Assembly (NCBI GenBank): GCA_964514385.1
Contig: CAZEQJ010000011.1
Span: forward strand, 14,295-78,294
DNA length: 64,000 bases
DNA from: an uncultured Cytophagales bacterium
GTDB lineage: Bacteria > Bacteroidota > Bacteroidia > Cytophagales > Cyclobacteriaceae
Reading direction: 5' to 3'
Position 1 is the first letter of the stretch. Every line of letters starts with the position of its first letter. A program made the translations under genes and the position numbers. Positions 26,892 to 64,000 of this stretch are shown here, piece by piece. The notes beneath the pieces were generated by a model. That model saw nothing but the letters and a program-made list of their open reading frames with translations, did not search any database and was not told where the DNA came from.

Positions 26892-29800
26892 TCAGGCTTC
26901 TATACCCTGATAGGACCGTAATATATCGACCACCTTATCTGATTCTTCGATATACCGGTCAAGCATTTTTTCGAGATTCTTTTTATTGCTGGTAGCATTC
27001 ATTTCCATGTCCAGGCATACATCTGCAAGTTCTTTAAAACCCAAAGCCAGCGCGCTGCCTTTTATTTTATGTGCCTGTGCTTTTATGGCCTGATGCTCAT
27101 TGTTATGGATGGCTTCACCCAAGAGGGTTTTGCCTTGTATAAACATCTTCTCTGATATAGCCAGCAAATGTCTTAGAGCATCTGTATCGCCATTTACAAG
27201 TTGGTTTAATTCGTCAATTTTATTGTTTGCCTGATCCTCAATCTCAGTTCTGACTATTTCAGCGGAGGTGATCTTATCTGTCCACCTGATCAGGGTCTTC
27301 TGAAAATCATCCTGTTTGATTGGCTTTGACATATAATCATCCATGCCTGCATTCAATGCTTTTTCCCTGTCCCCTTCCAGTGCTCCGGCGGTAAGGGCAA
27401 TGATAATGGTATCTTTACCTTCCTCAAGTTTTCTTACCTGCCTGGCCAGCTCATAGCCGTTCATTTCAGGCATCTGAATATCGGTAAGTACAATATCAGG
27501 TTGTAACGCCTTGAATTTTTGCAGGGCTGACTTTCCATTGGTAGCTTCATATACCATAAAAGGACCTTTCATTCGTTCGAAAAATGACCTTACCAACACC
27601 ATATTCAGCTCATTATCCTCTGCTACCAGTACCTTTAACTGTTTATCGGTTTTGAGTACAGCTTCAGTTGATTCTTCTTCTATTTTTACCTTTTTTGTAT
27701 CAATAGTGGAATCCTTTATTTTACTCAATGCCTTGAGGAATGACTCAAACTGAACAGGTTTTACTAAAGCGAGGTCAATTTTCAGGTTATCCACCTTTCG
27801 CTTATATTCTTCGCTGCTGGAGGAACTGCTGAGAATAACTTTATATATTTTCTTACCCCAGCTTCCGGTAAGCTGGTTTATTTTATCCATGGTTTCAAAC
27901 CCATCCATTACCGGCATATGAAGATCCATAATGATAAGATCCACGTCCTCATCTCCTGATAATATATCAAGTGCACGAAATCCGTTTGTCGCTGATATCG
28001 TCTTGAGGCCGGCTATTTTAAGCATATCTTCAAGTAGCCTGAGATTGGTCTCATTATCGTCTACAATCATTACCTTTTCAAAGCCAAGGTCAACGATTGC
28101 ATCACCCTGATCCTCATAGCTGCAATCCACATCAATATCAAAATAGAACGTGCTGCCTTTGCCGAGTGTACTCTTTAAGCTCAGCTGGCTATCCATCATA
28201 CTCAGCAGCTTGTTGGAGATGGTAAGTCCAAGTCCGGTACCTCCAAACTGACGCGTTGTCGATGAATCTTCCTGTGTAAATGCTTCGAATATTTTTTCTT
28301 GTTTTTCCTTTGCGATACCTATACCTGTATCCCTTACAAGAAAACGTAATTTCACCCTGTCATCTGAAAGCTTATCCAATACCTTAACCTGAAATTCCAC
28401 CTCTCCTTTTCTGGTAAACTTGATGGCATTACTCAGCAGGTTGATACATACCTGCCGCAGACGTAATGGATCAATATTGATATAGCGGGGCAAATCCATG
28501 GGGAGATTCAGGATAAGTTCAAGCTGCTTCTGATGTGCCTGGTATTTGGTGATCTCCGCAATCTCAGCGCCGAGTGACGGCAGGTCGGTCATTTCAGGCG
28601 CAAGCTCCAGCTTACCGGCTTCAATTTTGGAGAAATCAAGTATATCGTTGATAAGGCCAAGCAAAGTTCCTGCGGAGCTGTTGACCGTCTTCATGTACTC
28701 CTGCTGGGTGCCATCCAGTGGTGTTTTCATCAACAGGTCAGTAAAGCCGATAATACCGTTGAGCGGAGTACGTATCTCATGGCTCATGTTTGCCAGAAAC
28801 TCCGATTTAAAACGGCTGGCCTCCTCTGCCTTTTCCTTTTCTACTTCCAACAGATGCTGACTTTTAATCTCTTCAGTGACATCGGTCAGGGTGCCGAACC
28901 AGATGAATTCCCCGGAATTTTCTAGCCATGGCTCTGATTTTAGTTCAAACCAAACCAGATTTTCCTGAAGCCGGTACCTGAAGCGGGCGCTGAAAGGTTG
29001 TATTTTGTTCAGGGCATTCGATATTGTTTCCTTTAATAAATCAATATCATCTTCATGGATATACTCGTAGATATTTCCTACACTGCCCAATACTTCCTCC
29101 TCCTGTTTTTCCAGCATCTGATAGAATACCGGACTTAAAAATATCAGCTCACCATGCTGGTTCATTTTGAAGATACCGACAGATACCAATGATAATATGC
29201 GGTTTAGCTCGGTCGATTTTTCTTCCAGCTTCTGGTTGGCCATTTTCTTTTCATGGATATCCTGAAATAATCCATGCAGGTATTTACATTTTCCATCTTC
29301 AAATTCGGGTATGCCTACTGCCCTGATCCACCGATAATTTCCTTTTGCTGTTTTAATCAGGGCTTCGAGGTCAAAATGCTTTCCATTTTGGATGGCGTTA
29401 TCTACTGCATTGGTGATTATCTCCTTGTATTTTCCCTGGTAGTAGCTGATACCTTTTTCAACATTAGTTTGATCAAAATAATCTACTTCATGGATCTCAC
29501 ATGTGATGGGGCTCCATTGTGTGGACATGTCGCTTAGGTTTACTTCCCACGTGCCGATACGCCCCAATTCATTGGTTTTAATGAATAAGTCGTTAAGACG
29601 CTCCAGTTTTTCGCGTTCTATGACAGATTCAGTGATGTCGTCGAGGTAACCATGCCATAATACGCCACCCGTGACTTTTTCCGGTTTGGAGATACCCGAA
29701 ATATGGCGTATTACACCATTTTTATTGATACGGTATTCCATGACCCAGTTGGTCAGTTCCTGATACGACTGCTGTATAGATTGCTGTACCTGTATCAGAT

Positions 29801-31193
29801 CTGCAGGTAAAATGGTTTCAAATATTGTCTCTGCGCGACTTTTGACATCCTCCTCTTTCACGCCGTGTAATTTTGCCAGCCCTTTATGCCCAAAAGGTAC
29901 TGCAATTGAGCCGTCATCCTTCATCATAAACTGGTAAACGGTGCCTGGCAGGTTTTCAATCATATTGGAAAGAAGGCGTTCATTTCTGGCACTCTCCATT
30001 TCAGAAAGCTTTCTATCCGTAATATCATCGAGATAGCCATAAAAAATTACACCATTTTCCACTCTTTCTGGCGTACCCACACTTAAAAGATAGCGTAATC
30101 CCCTCTTTTCGCTCAGGGATCGGAATTCCGATTTGAATAGGGTAAGATCCTGAAGGGATTTCTGAATGGCTTCATTTACAGACTGAAGGTCATCCGGATG
30201 GACGTTTGCCATTGACATCTGAGGGTCGTCTCTGATTTGCTGTTCCTCAAGACCATGTAGCTCAGCAATTCCTTTATGGCCAAACAGTATATCTGCTGTG
30301 CCGTCGTCATATAAAATATTCTGGTATACCGTACCTGGTAAGTTATTGATCAGGGTTGTGAGGATCTTTTCATTTCTTGTGGCACTTAATTCCTCTTCCT
30401 TCTGAGCCGAAATATCGATTATAGTGCCGAAAATATATTTTGATCTCCCCTCCTCGTCAAATTCAAATACTTTACCGCGCGCCAGTACCCATACCCAATG
30501 TCCATCTTTATGCTTCATACGGTGTGTACAGGTATACCGGTCTGTTTCGCCATTCACATGTGCATTCAACTGCTTTTCACATTTGCGCAAATCTTCCGGA
30601 TGCACTCGTTCCGCCCAGGTATTTTTAGAGAGTGGCTTAAGCTCCTCCAGTTTAAAGCCGATTATTTCTGCCCATATATGATTATAGTTAGCCTTACCCG
30701 AAATCAGATCCAGTTCCCAGGTTCCTGAGTCAGTACCTTCTACGAGATATCCGTATTTTTTAGATTTTGATGTAAGGTGATTATCGGTCTTGAGGTCCGT
30801 TATATCCTGGTAAACTCCTATCATACGGTACGGTATTCCTTCATTATTCCATATGATAATACATTGTGTTTTGACCCATTTATATATGCCGTTTTTATGT
30901 TTTAGCCTTTGTTCGAGTTGGAACCGATTGATACCTTCCTGCATAGATCTTTGACCCACCTCCTGAGCCTTATCCAGATCTTCCGGGTGTATAACCTCAC
31001 GCATAAAGGAGGATTCCGTATCTGCACTATAGCCCAGCCAACTCCAGATATTGGGGTTTACCCAGGCCTTTTCATGGTTTTCCAGATCCCATATCCAGGT
31101 GGCATTAATTCCGGAATCCAGCAAAAGGTCGAAGACCGAAGCATCATTTTGTATGATCTTGTATAATTCTTTTTTCAGATTGTTGGTATCCAT
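26892..31193 (-). CDS. soluble multi-PAS hybrid sensor histidine kinase (PAS x ~6, HisKA, HATPase, REC, REC, Hpt)
   Basis: H-box FLANMSHEIRTPL, G-boxes RDTGIGI and GGTGLGLTIS. Two receivers (IIMDLHMPVMDG, VLTDIQMPEMNG). Hpt motif HKIKGSALALG. No TM helix. Confidence 0.9.
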   Translation of the reverse strand: MDTNNLKKELYKIIQNDASVFDLLLDSGINATWIWDLENHEKAWVNPNIWSWLGYSADTESSFMREVIHPEDLDKAQEVGQRSMQEGINRFQLEQRLKHKNGIYKWVKTQCIIIWNNEGIPYRMIGVYQDITDLKTDNHLTSKSKKYGYLVEGTDSGTWELDLISGKANYNHIWAEIIGFKLEELKPLSKNTWAERVHPEDLRKCEKQLNAHVNGETDRYTCTHRMKHKDGHWVWVLARGKVFEFDEEGRSKYIFGTIIDISAQKEEELSATRNEKILTTLINNLPGTVYQNILYDDGTADILFGHKGIAELHGLEEQQIRDDPQMSMANVHPDDLQSVNEAIQKSLQDLTLFKSEFRSLSEKRGLRYLLSVGTPERVENGVIFYGYLDDITDRKLSEMESARNERLLSNMIENLPGTVYQFMMKDDGSIAVPFGHKGLAKLHGVKEEDVKSRAETIFETILPADLIQVQQSIQQSYQELTNWVMEYRINKNGVIRHISGISKPEKVTGGVLWHGYLDDITESVIEREKLERLNDLFIKTNELGRIGTWEVNLSDMSTQWSPITCEIHEVDYFDQTNVEKGISYYQGKYKEIITNAVDNAIQNGKHFDLEALIKTAKGNYRWIRAVGIPEFEDGKCKYLHGLFQDIHEKKMANQKLEEKSTELNRILSLVSVGIFKMNQHGELIFLSPVFYQMLEKQEEEVLGSVGNIYEYIHEDDIDLLKETISNALNKIQPFSARFRYRLQENLVWFELKSEPWLENSGEFIWFGTLTDVTEEIKSQHLLEVEKEKAEEASRFKSEFLANMSHEIRTPLNGIIGFTDLLMKTPLDGTQQEYMKTVNSSAGTLLGLINDILDFSKIEAGKLELAPEMTDLPSLGAEIAEITKYQAHQKQLELILNLPMDLPRYINIDPLRLRQVCINLLSNAIKFTRKGEVEFQVKVLDKLSDDRVKLRFLVRDTGIGIAKEKQEKIFEAFTQEDSSTTRQFGGTGLGLTISNKLLSMMDSQLSLKSTLGKGSTFYFDIDVDCSYEDQGDAIVDLGFEKVMIVDDNETNLRLLEDMLKIAGLKTISATNGFRALDILSGDEDVDLIIMDLHMPVMDGFETMDKINQLTGSWGKKIYKVILSSSSSSEEYKRKVDNLKIDLALVKPVQFESFLKALSKIKDSTIDTKKVKIEEESTEAVLKTDKQLKVLVAEDNELNMVLVRSFFERMKGPFMVYEATNGKSALQKFKALQPDIVLTDIQMPEMNGYELARQVRKLEEGKDTIIIALTAGALEGDREKALNAGMDDYMSKPIKQDDFQKTLIRWTDKITSAEIVRTEIEDQANNKIDELNQLVNGDTDALRHLLAISEKMFIQGKTLLGEAIHNNEHQAIKAQAHKIKGSALALGFKELADVCLDMEMNATSNKKNLEKMLDRYIEESDKVVDILRSYQGIEA

Positions 31194-59613: not shown

Positions 59614-60696
59614 TCATGTATTGAGCGCAGACTTGCGCACCGGGCGCAATATAAAGTCGCTGATAGATGACAGTGGCAGGATATGCTGGGCTGCATCGAG
59701 CTTCACAGCTTCTTTTGGCATACCATATACAATAGATGATTTTTCATCCTGAGCCACGGTAATAGCACCTGCTTCACGCATTTCAAGCAAGCCACGTGCC
59801 CCATCATCTCCCATACCTGTCATGATAATCCCGATAGCATTTTTACCAGCAAATTGTGCTGTGGAGCGAAAAAGAACATCCACTGAGGGGCGGTGACGGC
59901 TTACAAGCGGGCCATCTTTTACTTCCACATAATAGCGGGCGCCGCTTCTTTTCAGCAAGGTATGCTTATTGCCAGGTGCGATCAATACATGACCGCGAAT
60001 AACAGGATCACCGTTTTCTGCTTCCTTGACGTTGACATGACAGAGCTCATTTAGCCTGTTGGCAAAACTACGTGTGAAATTTTCCGGCATATGCTGCACG
60101 ATCACTATTCCCGGGCAATCCGGTGGCAGCGCCATCAAAACCTCACGAATAGCTTCAGTACCACCTGTAGAAGCCCCGAGTGCTACTACACGCTCCGTGG
60201 TACGGACCATGGCGTGATTGGCCGCTTTTTTTACAACCACATCGGCCGGAAGTTTTTTATCCGGCACCCAGCTGCTACGCTTTTTAGTAACATTTACCTT
60301 TGCCGCTGCCTTTACCGTATCACAAATACGGATTTTACTTTCCTCGAAAAACTCTTTGGTATGGAGTTCAGGTTTTTTAATTACCTCAACAGCACCAGAT
60401 TCCATTGCTTGAAGACCTGTTTCAGACGCCTTCTCGGTGAGGCTGCTGATCACCACGACAGGAATAGGACGTTGTTGAATGATTTTTTTAAGAAAGGTAA
60501 TGCCATCCATCCTGGGCATTTCAATATCGAGGGTAATGACATCTGGTACCTCTTTAGCAATATAACGGGCTGCCATATAGGGATCCGCAGCCTTACCTAT
60601 CACCTCGATTTCAGGATCCGCATCCAATATTCTCGTGAGAGCTGCTCTCACTACGGCAGAGTCATCGACTATTAAAACACGAATCCGATTTTTCAT
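59614..60696 (-). CDS. cheB: protein-glutamate methylesterase/response regulator CheB
   Basis: REC domain with LIVDDS and acceptor Asp ([12 protein letters not shown]). Esterase triad contexts GASTGG, VQHMP and GMGDDG. Confidence 0.93.
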
Positions 60697-61172
60697 ATTG
60701 ACTTTTTAACCATCCGCATATGTATCTCTCCGGTATGCGTGTAAAACCGAATGTTTCTACCCTGATGCCCTCCTGTATGCCTGGCCTTTATGGGTATCCC
60801 GTTCTCTGATAGCTTCTTTTCAGCCAGCACAATGTTTCGCTCACCAATGGTAAAACTGTTGACCGAAGATTTTAAACTTGCCGCACCGCCAAATATCTTG
60901 GCTATGATCCTTTTCGAACCGGCACCGGAGTGGATCATTTTTTCTATAAGCAGGTCGATAGCAATATCGCCATATTTAGGGCTTTCGAGGCCATTACCAT
61001 TCCACAGATCAAGCATATAGTGATTAATGCCACCAATCTGACTCACCGGATCGTAAAGGCACACGGCTACGCAGGATCCGAGAATGGTCGTCACTTCCAT
61101 AGGCTGTGCTGATACGATCAATGCAGATGGCATCAGGTAATGTTTTTTCAGTGAAAGTTCAGCCAATGCCAT
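60693..61172 (-). CDS. cheD: chemoreceptor glutamine deamidase CheD
   Basis: [11 protein letters not shown] catalytic-Cys context; 159 aa. Overlap-coupled to cheB. Confidence 0.88.
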
Positions 61173-62065
61173 TAAAATAATTCTACATCATTGAAAAGTT
61201 CTTCATTTGAAGCTTCTACCCGGTAGATCGCGCGGTCATCTTCATTCTGCAAAGGAAGTAATACTCCTGCCATAGTACCCTCCCCTTCCACACTGTTAAT
61301 TTCAATTGTACCTGAAAGCATGTCAACGAGAGCACTTACTATGCTCAATCCAAGGCCGTGACCCGGATAATTCTTGGTCGTACCTTCTTCACCCTGAACA
61401 AAGCGATCGAAAATCTGATCTCGCTTTTCATCCGGTATCCCTACTCCTGTATCTTTAATCAGAATGGATATATTATCCTCCAATATTCCAAGGTGCACTT
61501 CGATTTCACCACCTTCCTTATTGAACTTAAGGGCATTATCGATCAGATTTTCAATGATCATACGTGTTTTTTCAGTGTCCAGTATCAATGCCGCCTCCCG
61601 CTCTTCTATGGTGGAATAAATTCGGGTCGTTACTTTTTTTAATTCAAATTGAGAAGTCCTGTCACCTATGATTTCATGGATGATCGTGTGGAGATCCATT
61701 TTACTCAGCCGCAGCTCTGTCTGCCCGGCTTCAAGTTCGGCCGCATAGAAAATATTGGTAAGCTGAAAATTCATATTTTTCATTTCAGCATTAATGATAC
61801 CGGCAACCTCACGAACCTTATCCGCATCGGATATATTGCCGTTGCTGATATTTTGCGAAAGGCCCAACAGCGATGTCAGTGGGTTGACCAGCTCATTTCG
61901 GATATTGGAAAGAAACCTGGATTTCAACGATTCTGAAGCTCTGAGCTTTTTATTCATGTGCTCAAGCTCTGCCGTAAGTTTTCGCTCTGCATCCAGCAAC
62001 TTCCGCTGAAGGTCAAACCGGTTGCGGAGTTCTGTCAATAGCTGTTCATCTGTGATTTCCTTCAT
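61172..62065 (-). CDS. cytoplasmic class-I histidine-kinase-like protein (coiled coil, DHp, HATPase_c) lacking the H-box histidine
   Basis: The H-box position reads FLSNIRNELVNPL (Asn, codon AAT at 61895-61897, where SHELRTPL has His). N-box ENLIDNALKFN, G1 KDTGVGI and G2 GHGLGLS are intact. Confidence 0.85.
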   Translation of the reverse strand: MKEITDEQLLTELRNRFDLQRKLLDAERKLTAELEHMNKKLRASESLKSRFLSNIRNELVNPLTSLLGLSQNISNGNISDADKVREVAGIINAEMKNMNFQLTNIFYAAELEAGQTELRLSKMDLHTIIHEIIGDRTSQFELKKVTTRIYSTIEEREAALILDTEKTRMIIENLIDNALKFNKEGGEIEVHLGILEDNISILIKDTGVGIPDEKRDQIFDRFVQGEEGTTKNYPGHGLGLSIVSALVDMLSGTIEINSVEGEGTMAGVLLPLQNEDDRAIYRVEASNEELFNDVELF

Positions 62066-62071
62066 GATTCT

Positions 62072-62902
62072 TTATTTTTTAAATACTGTCGGCGCCACCT
62101 GCTGCACGGGTAGCTGCATATGATGAAGAGACTCGGAATGACCGATAAAGAGATATCCACCGGTTTTAAGCTGGCGGATAAGTTTGGCCAATACCTTTTT
62201 CTGTGTTTCCCTGTCAAAATAGATGATAACATTCCGGCAAAAAATGATATCAAATTTCGTATCCATATGGTAGTCATCATCCATGAAATTGAGCCTGCCA
62301 AACCGAACCCTGCTTCGGATTTTTTGATTCACCTTCACAAGGGCCTCTTCACGGTTTTTACTTCGCAGGAAATAGCGGGATTTTAATTCTGCTGACATGT
62401 CGCCCAGCTTTTTCTCTTCATAAATACCTCTGTTGGCTGTGCGCAACACTTCGGTGGAGAGGTCAGTTGCTGTAATGCGATAGTTTAGGTGTTCGTGGTT
62501 ACGGATATATTCCTCCATAACCATGGCCAATGTATAAGGCTCCTCGCCACTGCTGCATCCGGCGCTCCACATTTCCAGCTTTTTTCTGTCTGCAAGCAGC
62601 TCTGGAAGTACAGTGCCGGTCATAATGCTGTAATGTGCAGGTTCCCGATAAAAGTCGGTTTTGTTGGTAGTGACCACATCGATGAGTGAGGTAAATTCCT
62701 CAGGATGGATGACTTTCTTATTTTTGAATACCATATTGAGGTATTCATCCATCGTGTTCATCTCATTGACCTTCAGTCGCTTGGCCAGTCTCGCCTCAAG
62801 CAATACCTGCTTGGCTTCCGGTAACTGGATGCCGCAGGTATTGTATATCAGCGAGCTCAGCTCTGTGAACTGTTCCTTACTAAGCCTTTTTGTCAGGGTC
62901 AT
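62072..62902 (-). CDS. cheR: chemotaxis protein-glutamate O-methyltransferase CheR
   Basis: CheR N-terminal helical domain plus SAM fold (MWSAGCSSGEEPYTLAM, IFCRNVIIYFD). Confidence 0.92.
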   Translation of the reverse strand: MTLTKRLSKEQFTELSSLIYNTCGIQLPEAKQVLLEARLAKRLKVNEMNTMDEYLNMVFKNKKVIHPEEFTSLIDVVTTNKTDFYREPAHYSIMTGTVLPELLADRKKLEMWSAGCSSGEEPYTLAMVMEEYIRNHEHLNYRITATDLSTEVLRTANRGIYEEKKLGDMSAELKSRYFLRSKNREEALVKVNQKIRSRVRFGRLNFMDDDYHMDTKFDIIFCRNVIIYFDRETQKKVLAKLIRQLKTGGYLFIGHSESLHHMQLPVQQVAPTVFKK

Positions 62903-62911
62903 CTGATTACA

Positions 62912-64000
62912 CTAAAAACGCTCAAAGCCTGAATCACCATTATCATCGTCCATGATCAACTGAAATCCATTACTTTTATCCTTCGCATAATGTCCATTGG
63001 ACTTATGCGACTCTGCAGGGCGTGTTTCAGTATTTGCTGATTTTTTCACTTCTCTAAGTTGCATTTTCCGATGGCCGCTGCCATTATTGTCTACCTTGAA
63101 ATAGGCTATTGTACTTTTCAGTGAATCTGCCTGGCTGGCCAGTTCCTCAGAGCTGGTGGCCATTTCTTCAGAGCTGGCAGCATTTTGCTGTGTCACCATG
63201 TTGAGTTGCTGAATAGCCGTATTGACCTGATCGGCACCAGCATTTTGCTCAATACTTGCTGCGGTAATCTCCTGCACTAGCTTGGCTGTTTTCTGAATAT
63301 CCGGCACGATACTATCAAAAAGCTCGGCACTTCGAACTGCCACCTCGACACTACTCTTAGATACTTCATCGATTTCGGCTGCAGCAGCCTGGCTACGTTC
63401 GGCAAGCTTACGTACCTCAGCCGCTACTACGGCAAAGCCTTTGCCATGCTCGCCGGCACGAGCTGCTTCCACAGCTGCATTTAATGCCAGGATATTGGTC
63501 TGTCGGGCTATTTCGCCTATAATCGAAACCTTCTCTGCTATATCTTTCATAGAGGTAACAGTCTGCTTTACTGATTCGCTGCCATCAAGAATATCTTTGC
63601 TGGCCTTTTCAGCAATTTTCTCCGTCTGCTGCGCGTTTTCAGTATTTTGCTGAATGTTGGACGCCATCTCTTCCATAGAAGACGATACTTCCTCGGCTGA
63701 TGAGGCCTGCTGTGAAGCTCCCTGTGACACCTGCTGAGAGGCTGTACTAAGCTGCGAACTGGCTGCTGCGATATTATCAGCTCCGCTACGTACATCTGAT
63801 ACAATTTCCCGGATCTTATCTGCCATTCGTTTTAGTGTCTGGGCCAGCATGCCGATCTCGTCTTTCTGGTCTATCTCTACCGAAGCTGTCAGGTCACCTT
63901 TTTCGAGCGCTTCAGCAAATGAAACACCCTGACGTACAGGCCCTGTAATGGCACGGGTAATGATAAAGGCAAATGCTATACCTATAATGAGGGCAAAAAT
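62912..64000 (-). CDS. methyl-accepting chemotaxis protein, 5' end beyond the window
   Basis: Hairpin-tip signature [40 protein letters not shown]. The frame stays open upstream of the track's Met through a HAMP domain and a TM helix ([21 protein letters not shown]...) to position 64000. Confidence 0.92.

Follow-up and report, generated by a model that had tools for sequence, protein, structure and literature searches.

Chemosensory operons of the Che2 or cluster III type, as in Pseudomonas aeruginosa (Che2) and Vibrio cholerae (cluster III), carry cheR followed directly by cheD. In a stretch of 64,000 nucleotides from an uncultured Cytophagales bacterium (GenBank assembly GCA_964514385.1, contig CAZEQJ010000011.1, positions 14,295 to 78,294 of the forward strand; hereafter the window), an extra gene lies between the two, and it encodes a protein with the domains of a histidine kinase in which the phospho-accepting His is replaced by Asn (Asn57). 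We refer to this protein, and to the family that it represents, as HKN. HKN loci resemble the Che2-type operons in gene order, (STAS)-cheY-cheA-cheW-mcp-cheR-[ ]-cheD-cheB, as seen in Reichenbachiella, Thermophagus and Salinivirgaceae relatives, and differ from them by the presence of HKN. Here we describe the conservation of the Asn across the family and the linkage of HKN to cheD, and we weigh what such a protein might do; tentatively, we favor a pseudo-kinase partner of CheD.

A relative in architecture is DivL of Caulobacter crescentus (PDB 4Q20), which like HKN has the DHp and ATP-binding (CA) fold with the phospho-His replaced. DivL works by binding a phosphorylated receiver and not by autophosphorylation, and the DHp face of HKN, together with a natural fusion to a receiver (REC) domain described below, suggests that the same may hold for HKN. 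The two differ in the replacing residue (Tyr in DivL, Asn in HKN) and in setting, as DivL acts in the cell cycle, within the CckA/DivK circuit, and lacks any link to CheD; HKN, unlike DivL, has no N-terminal sensor domain and keeps its ATP-binding motifs strictly conserved. Neither the H-box Tyr nor the DivK/CckA link that mark DivL orthologs was found for HKN, whose context is cheD, and by sequence HKN is no closer to DivL (E = 1.5e-17, weaker than the matches to WalK and HK853) than to ordinary kinases.

A relative in genomic setting is CheC (with CheX and FliY; Bacillus, Thermotoga), which like HKN is encoded with cheD and carries an E-x-x-N pair. In Bacillus subtilis, CheD binds receptors and CheC, and CheC is a CheY-P phosphatase whose E-x-x-N active site positions water on the phospho-aspartate (PMC3513319). 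The CheC-CheD interaction is strengthened by CheY-P, gating of CheD-receptor binding by the CheY-P level has been proposed, and it is the binding, not the enzymatic activity, of CheC/CheD that matters for adaptation (PMC3513319). CheC has an alpha/beta fold, whereas HKN is built of DHp and CA domains and alone has an ATP-binding domain, and many HKN clusters encode a CheX-like protein in addition. HKN has no Pfam CheC match and neither the CheC fold nor the [DS]xxxExxN-x22-P motif; the E-x-x-N dyad is all it shares with that motif, along with the pairing with CheD seen in gene linkage.

Finally, HisKA kinases that were made kinase-minus and phosphatase-plus in the laboratory (EnvZ His243 variants, CrdS H371A) have, like HKN, lost the phospho-His and kept the Asn or Thr at H+4, and they retain phosphatase activity (PMC3510030). 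These are engineered bifunctional sensors, whereas HKN is a natural, ancient, sensor-less family tied to CheD and not to a cognate transcription-factor response regulator. In its H-box (IRNEINNPL), HKN shares the type of NtrB and CrdS (LAHEIKNPL).

An asparagine conserved at the phospho-acceptor position

The HKN protein of the window (FLSNIRNELVNPLTSLLG) has the H-box FLSNIRNELVNP. In a phmmer search against PDB sequences its segment flsnirNELvnPLts pairs with fvsnvSHELrtPLts of VicK and WalK, and Asn57 therefore occupies the phospho-His column. The underlying DNA reads …TTT CTT TCC AAT ATC CGA AAT GAG CTG GTC AAC CCA… (F-L-S-N-I-R-N57-E-L-V-N-P), with the Asn57 codon, AAT, placed between CGA (Arg56) and GAG (Glu58).

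The replacement recurs throughout the family in three samplings. A protein search with HKN over 5.8 billion proteins returned 1058 matches at E ≤ 1e-10, and the best 120, which we examined, are 274-313 amino acids long (median 299) and, the query itself excepted, 36-46% identical to the query; all 120 have Asn in the phospho-His column. A scan of one genome per species found HKN relatives in at least 467 genomes, and 80 loci with 83 HKN copies were retrieved, from Magnetococcales, magnetotactic Nitrospirota, Desulfuromonadales/Geobacteraceae, Bacteroidota (Flavobacteriales, Cytophagales, Bacteroidales) and Chlorobi. Invariant in all 83 copies are Asn57, Glu58, Asn61, Pro62, Gln101, Asn104, N173, N177, D205, G207, G209, G235, G237 and G239. 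The codon for Asn57 is AAC in 44 copies and AAT in 39, and this use of both codons indicates synonymous turnover under selection for Asn. Lastly, 1.84 billion cluster representatives were searched with a profile, and alignment of the output yielded 232 short HKN family members, with Asn in 230, His in one and Cys in one; canonical long-kinase domains in the same profile output have His in 64 of 67.

Other DHp positions are similarly constrained among the 232 members (E58 in 228, N61 in 229, P62 in 232, Q101 in 230 and N104 in 229), and a rough neighbor-joining tree recovers the family as monophyletic with respect to canonical kinase domains. By these alignments, strong purifying selection acts on the Glu at H+1, the Asn at H+4, the Pro at H+5 and every adenine- or Mg-binding motif. 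The His-bearing exception (P0154, L088:858-1787) reads FLSNIKHEINNP, with the codon CAT and with cheD as the next gene, and the Cys-bearing one (P0192) reads FLSNIRCEINNP. An ancestral state for the His of P0154 was rejected, as this member is nested deep among Asn-bearing clades of the tree, a position that suggests an N-to-H reversion.

A sequence-only reading of the window had reported the Asn at this codon, which both the DNA and the VicK/WalK alignment bear out, and had allowed for a sequencing error or a strain-specific mutation, which the family data refute. To an error, a private mutation or a decaying pseudogene we assign next to no probability: AAT is one transversion from CAT, and P0154 does carry CAT, yet Asn is nearly universal over several phyla with synonymous turnover of its codon, the window's open reading frame is full length, and the family is held together at 35-46% identity by about 50 invariant or near-invariant positions. 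A 1433-amino-acid hybrid histidine kinase encoded elsewhere in the window (26892-31193, minus strand), with multiple PAS domains, two receiver domains and an Hpt-like region at its C-terminus, has the canonical H-box FLANMSHEIRTPL with its His intact; His-bearing kinases are therefore called normally in this assembly.

The same reading had drawn attention to a His 21 residues upstream. This residue (His36) is present, and its role as an alternative acceptor is ruled out by the lack of conservation of its column, which in the family is mostly E, D, K or A and does not have His among its six commonest residues. Column 50 was likewise rejected: 63 of 232 members have His there, fewer than have Asn, and the window protein has Arg. 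No conserved His was found in the DHp domain among the 232 members; the single near-invariant His of the family is that of the G2 box (GHGLGL, 213 of 232). Because the side chain of Asn cannot stand in for the His imidazole in accepting a phosphoryl group for transfer, we infer, in agreement with the sequence-only reading, that HKN is unable to autophosphorylate at the canonical site. What that reading had not remarked, while seeing the loss of the His, is that the E-x-x-N-P around it (H+1, H+4 and H+5) is retained.

The family is widespread and apparently undescribed. We found no description of it in open-access papers and bioRxiv searched as full text, an absence that is no proof, and a 2008 study of Geobacter che clusters mentions cheD-containing clusters with unnamed non-che genes and nothing further.

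Domain architecture and predicted fold

Pfam HisKA matches residues 48-114 of HKN (30.6 bits, cut-off 26.9) and HATPase_c matches residues 164-273 (92.4 bits), with weak additional matches to HATPase_c_2, the anti-sigma kinase type. No sensor, transmembrane or HAMP domain was matched by Pfam, which recognizes just HisKA and HATPase_c-type families, from residue 48 on. The CA domain has its N box (ENLIDNALKFN), G1 box (KDTGVGI) and G2 box (GHGLGLS) intact at the sequence level, as noted before, and the invariant positions N173 to G239 listed above extend this to the family. The phospho-accepting His that defines a HisKA sensor kinase was looked for in the H-box and is absent, which on sequence grounds places HKN outside the functional histidine-kinase class. 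Against NCBIfam, HKN matched generic kinase models alone, all far under their cut-offs, and no curated family model. Several members are publicly annotated at NCBI as 'HAMP domain-containing (sensor) histidine kinase'; Pfam matched no HAMP domain in the four members scanned, the window protein among them, and the label looks like a systematic misannotation.

An AlphaFold2 model of HKN built from a 30-member alignment (pLDDT 80, pTM 0.71) shows a normal DHp and CA fold. One long N-terminal helix (residues 6-74) is predicted to form a coiled-coil extension into DHp α1, α2 spans residues 81-113, the CA domain is of the standard α/β kind and the C-terminal tail is of low confidence. The best structural matches found by Foldseek are HK853 in its RR468-bound complexes and DivL, with WalK also matched. 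Family members share the H-box motif F-L-S-N-I-[RK]-N-E-[IL]-x-N-P and a tail with the consensus GN[DE]F[LI]F, then acidic residues, then a terminal Phe, which is the last residue in 64 of the 83 genome copies; the tail in the window (…SNEELFNDVELF) is a divergent form.

The near-invariance of the ATP-binding motifs and of the catalytic-base Glu58 would also suit an active kinase with another target, which could be a different residue of HKN, a partner kinase phosphorylated in trans on its DHp His, or a Ser/Thr of CheD or of a STAS or SiaC-type protein. Consistent with this are the weak HATPase_c_2 matches and the presence in some clusters of STAS or SiaC partner-switch proteins and hybrid kinases. 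We nevertheless give the idea only a small chance, as there is no conserved His outside the G2 box, the columns that would contact phosphate as Lys and Arg are mostly Glu and Gln, and the neighboring kinases and STAS/SiaC genes, unlike CheD, are not conserved across the family.

Linkage of HKN to cheD

Open reading frames were called in every fetched HKN locus and compared with reference Che proteins. In 82 of 83 loci, cheD directly follows HKN on the same strand, and in the remaining one the contig ends inside HKN. The stop codon of HKN and the start codon of cheD often overlap or nearly abut (in the window, the cheD ATG overlaps the HKN stop codon in TAATG, 61170-61174), and the pair is kept even where no other che genes lie nearby. 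By this linkage, HKN and CheD appear to be an obligate two-gene module, and the defining context of HKN would be cheD, not the che operon as such. The sequence-only reading had placed the gene in a che operon, which holds insofar as cheR, cheD, cheB and a methyl-accepting chemotaxis protein (MCP) gene flank it; the pairing with cheD had been missed. The window conforms to the module in encoding a soluble protein of about 300 amino acids with N, G1 and G2 boxes and a tail, with cheD directly downstream. HKN is probably a new accessory part of chemotaxis-type signaling.

The wider setting varies with lineage. The order in Bacteroidota is (STAS)-cheY-cheA-cheW-mcp-cheR-HKN-cheD-cheB, after which there often come cheY and a gene for a protein (X207) of about 202-207 amino acids, and in Geobacteraceae it is cheR-cheD-cheB-(REC-HD)-HKN-cheD. 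In Magnetococcales and Nitrospirota the HKN-cheD pair is often solitary. One Nitrospirota pair lies inside a replication-origin block, dnaA-dnaN-HKN-cheD-gyrB-gyrA (L084:5532-14269). The closest relatives of the window's cheD are from Marinilabiliales (52-59% identity), and the pair is also present in cultured members of that order: Thermophagus xiamenensis, like a Salinivirgaceae genome, has STAS-cheY-cheA-cheW-cheR-HKN-cheD-cheB, with an HKN that reads FISNISNEIVNP, Asn again. The T. xiamenensis HKN lies at L089:9089-9988. Judged by these relatives, the window would probably come from Bacteroidota of the Marinilabiliales type.

The partner itself has distinctive features. HKN-linked CheDs align with Thermotoga maritima CheD (2F9Z), have the catalytic Cys34 and His51 conserved in 100% and share a loop, WNGxGL…PKYGN, that is present neither in T. 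maritima CheD nor in the ordinary second CheDs of Geobacteraceae. Those second copies come from Geobacteraceae/Desulfuromonadaceae clusters in which cheD occurs twice, as an ordinary gene between cheR and cheB and as an HKN-linked gene with the loop (L034, L035, L042, L065, L071, L072, L075 and L081). The presence of a second, ordinary cheD in the same clusters argues that the HKN-linked CheD is a specialized paralog. No HKN-CheD fusion protein was found among the matches listed. A natural REC-HKN fusion was (P0254, L087:1447-2688), with the receiver domain at the N-terminus of HKN (FIANMRNEINNP), cheD as the next gene, and a REC-EAL protein and a GAF kinase flanking it.

HKN as a replacement for CheA is not supported. 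None of the Hpt (P1), H-kinase_dim (P3) and CheW-like (P5) domains of CheA was found in HKN, and related clusters have genuine CheA genes upstream. No CheA or CheW gene was found in the whole 64-kb window. Because the window's MCP gene runs off its end and, in the closest relatives, STAS-CheY-CheA-CheW lie immediately upstream, the window's cheA and cheW are most likely located just past position 64000. Look-ups meant to extend the contig past that point found no record of the window's HKN and CheR proteins and, for its CheD, a single contig of 1.9 kb. CheA and CheW are not nearby in the related cluster L085 either.

So strict a linkage to a catalytically intact CheD raises the alternative that HKN is a receptor mimic, with the Asn- and Gln-rich four-helix bundle of the DHp domain serving CheD as a pseudo-substrate in its active site or being itself deamidated, and the Phe tail imitating a receptor tether, so that HKN would sequester CheD or report its activity. 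DHp domains and MCP signaling domains are both dimeric helical-hairpin bundles. The DHp amides (N57, N60, N61, Q101 and N104), the loop peculiar to HKN-linked CheDs, the second, ordinary cheD of Geobacteraceae clusters and the tails of HKN (GN[DE]F[LI]F, acidic residues, Phe), set beside the D[FY]E[KR]F-type ends of MCPs, all fit such a role. We consider it unlikely, since it leaves the conserved ATP site without a role and the deamidation known for CheD is that of Gln, not of Asn. In addition, the receptor modification motif [AS]xx[QE][QE]xx[AS] occurs in only 10 of 83 HKN copies, at scattered positions, versus 42 of 47 MCPs (mean 3.5 sites), and a canonical modification site in HKN was accordingly rejected as absent or not conserved.

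A bolder version, to which we attach a low probability, makes HKN a decoy receptor on a kinase scaffold, with CheD deamidating a DHp amide (Asn57 to Asp, or N60, N61 or Q101). If true, the deamidation would be a state switch, or would create a carboxylate exactly where the CA domain delivers the ATP gamma-phosphate. Receptor-type modification, by CheD and perhaps by CheR/CheB recruited by the Phe-terminated tail, would then control an ATP-dependent phospho-signaling element, a direct biochemical bridge from adaptation enzymes to two-component-type output. We know of no such bridge in any chemosensory system.

A tentative model for HKN function

The reading that we prefer, and hold as possible short of probable, is that HKN is a non-autophosphorylating, nucleotide-binding pseudo-kinase partner of CheD whose DHp face binds, and probably dephosphorylates, a receiver. 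In HisKA kinases, the Asn or Thr at H+4 (CrdS N375 and its equivalents in HK853, EnvZ, PleC, WalK and others) is needed exclusively for phosphatase activity, the phospho-His is dispensable for that activity in EnvZ and CrdS, and the CA domain strongly stimulates it (PMC3510030). As HKN keeps E-x-x-N-P at H+1, H+4 and H+5, a role in dephosphorylating or binding a phosphorylated receiver is plausible.

On this model, HKN would be a soluble, sensor-less pseudo-histidine kinase whose CA domain still binds nucleotide. Its DHp face, with the Asn at H+4, would bind a phosphorylated receiver domain, that of the cluster's CheY or the REC domain of CheB, and probably dephosphorylate it, and HKN would also bind CheD. 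The availability of CheD to chemoreceptors would in this way be tied to the phosphorylation state of the pathway, making HKN an analog of CheC on a histidine-kinase scaffold, its conformation set by nucleotide binding to the CA domain.

Several observations weigh against this model. The N-box Lys and F-box Arg often contact ATP phosphates in canonical kinases, and among the 83 HKN copies 56 have Glu in the column of that Lys and 80 have Gln in the column of that Arg, replacements that may alter how the nucleotide's phosphates are handled. Binding to CheD or to a receiver is proposed on the strength of gene linkage and retained motifs. In many Bacteroidota clusters, cheY is followed by a gene for a CheX/CheC-like protein (ExxN-x22-P), so that a CheY-P phosphatase may already be present, and there are solitary HKN-CheD pairs with no adjacent receiver gene. 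Moreover, the Glu at H+1 is needed for kinase, not phosphatase, activity in CrdS, and PleC H610A loses phosphatase activity too (PMC3510030); a pure phosphatase model leaves the near-invariance of Glu58 unexplained.

An alternative is a non-catalytic pseudokinase in the manner of DivL, which would sense a phosphorylated receiver, or just scaffold CheD, and pass on a conformational change, with no hydrolysis of phospho-aspartate. The replaced phospho-His, a fold that matches DivL as well as HK853, the REC-HKN fusion, in which receiver input can evidently be wired to HKN, and the precedent of CheC-CheD, in which binding outweighs catalysis, all accord with this view, while the lack of an N-terminal sensor domain can be read either way. 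We think it unlikely, as an invariant Asn at H+4 and fully conserved ATP-binding motifs suggest more than passive binding. The possibilities named by the sequence-only reading (pseudokinase, scaffold or dedicated phosphatase) remain the leading ones, and of these a CheD-linked pseudo-kinase that acts on a receiver is the one we prefer.

Gene neighborhood

The features of the HKN locus in the window are collected in Table 1. Downstream of cheB the next gene encodes phosphoenolpyruvate carboxykinase, and the best NCBIfam match of the MCP is Aer2.

Table 1 Features of the HKN locus, in window coordinates
Feature	Position	Strand	Basis or remark
HKN, 297-amino-acid HisKA/HATPase_c protein	61172..62065	-	ATG start; end coordinate includes the stop codon
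Asn57 codon AAT, phospho-acceptor column of the H-box	61895..61897	-	DNA read and PDB alignment
Glu58-Leu-Val-Asn61-Pro62 (H+1 acid, H+4 Asn = HisKA phosphatase residue, H+5 Pro, all kept)	61880..61894	-	Family conservation and PMC3510030
HKN DHp (HisKA) helical hairpin, residues 48-114	61724..61924	-	Pfam and AlphaFold2
HKN N-terminal coiled-coil helix, conserved, residues 6-47	61925-62050	-	Precedes DHp
HKN HATPase_c (CA) domain, residues 164-273, with N box, G1 (DxGxG) and G2 (GHGLGL)	61247..61576	-	Pfam
HKN C-terminal tail, acidic and aromatic (…SNEELFNDVELF)	61175..61216	-	Family alignment; low pLDDT
cheD, apparently obligate downstream partner of HKN	60693..61172	-	Domain match; homologous to T. 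maritima CheD 2F9Z_C
cheR (methyltransferase), directly upstream of HKN	62072..62902	-	Domain match
cheB (REC and methylesterase), downstream of cheD	59614..60696	-	Domain match
MCP (transmembrane/HAMP/signaling domain), cut by the window end, C-terminus …DSGFERF	62912..64000	-	Domain match

MCPs beside HKN-CheD (loci L001-L079) have a D[FY]E[KR]F-type terminal pentapeptide, and 38 of the 50 listed MCP reading frames end in Phe and 6 in Tyr; in the window the pentapeptide is GFERF (62915-62929, minus strand). This looks like an NWETF-type tether for CheR/CheB in which Phe or Tyr replaces Trp. In appearance the tails of HKN are loosely similar to these MCP ends.

X207 (about 202-207 amino acids) is unannotated and lies after cheB-cheY in L002:12443-13066, L085:12900-13508 and 15 other Bacteroidota loci; it is not in the window. 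It carries LEVDNIISASVITQFSNLLKVKIHGGVP, an ExxN-x22-P phosphatase motif of the CheC/CheX type, is probably a divergent CheX and has a Pfam CheC match of just E = 0.009. L085:13510-15857 and L089:17200-20474, both downstream of the che/HKN cluster, hold genes for a PP2C (SpoIIE) phosphatase (fused to REC in L085 and to GAF/PAS in L089), a DUF6272 protein and a SiaC-family phosphoprotein, and a STAS gene opens the cluster in L002, L009, L052 and L090. These STAS, PP2C and SiaC neighbors point to a partner-switch output rather than flagellar control.

Implications

CheD is widespread, and to our knowledge what it does is understood only from Bacillus and Thermotoga, where CheC is its partner. 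A conserved and phylogenetically broad CheD partner with a histidine-kinase scaffold would enlarge the set of chemosensory components, and HKN could act as a receiver phosphatase or phospho-sensor of a new type, or control CheD in a new way. HKN would be the second natural bacterial family of pseudo-histidine kinases after DivL, with the ATP site kept, and so a clean system in which to ask what a kinase domain does once phosphotransfer is abolished; the His-bearing P0154, as a natural 'revertant', would be a useful experimental control. Hundreds of genomes now annotate HKN genes as 'HAMP domain-containing histidine kinase', a label that is misleading for the members scanned, which have no HAMP match and no phospho-accepting His.

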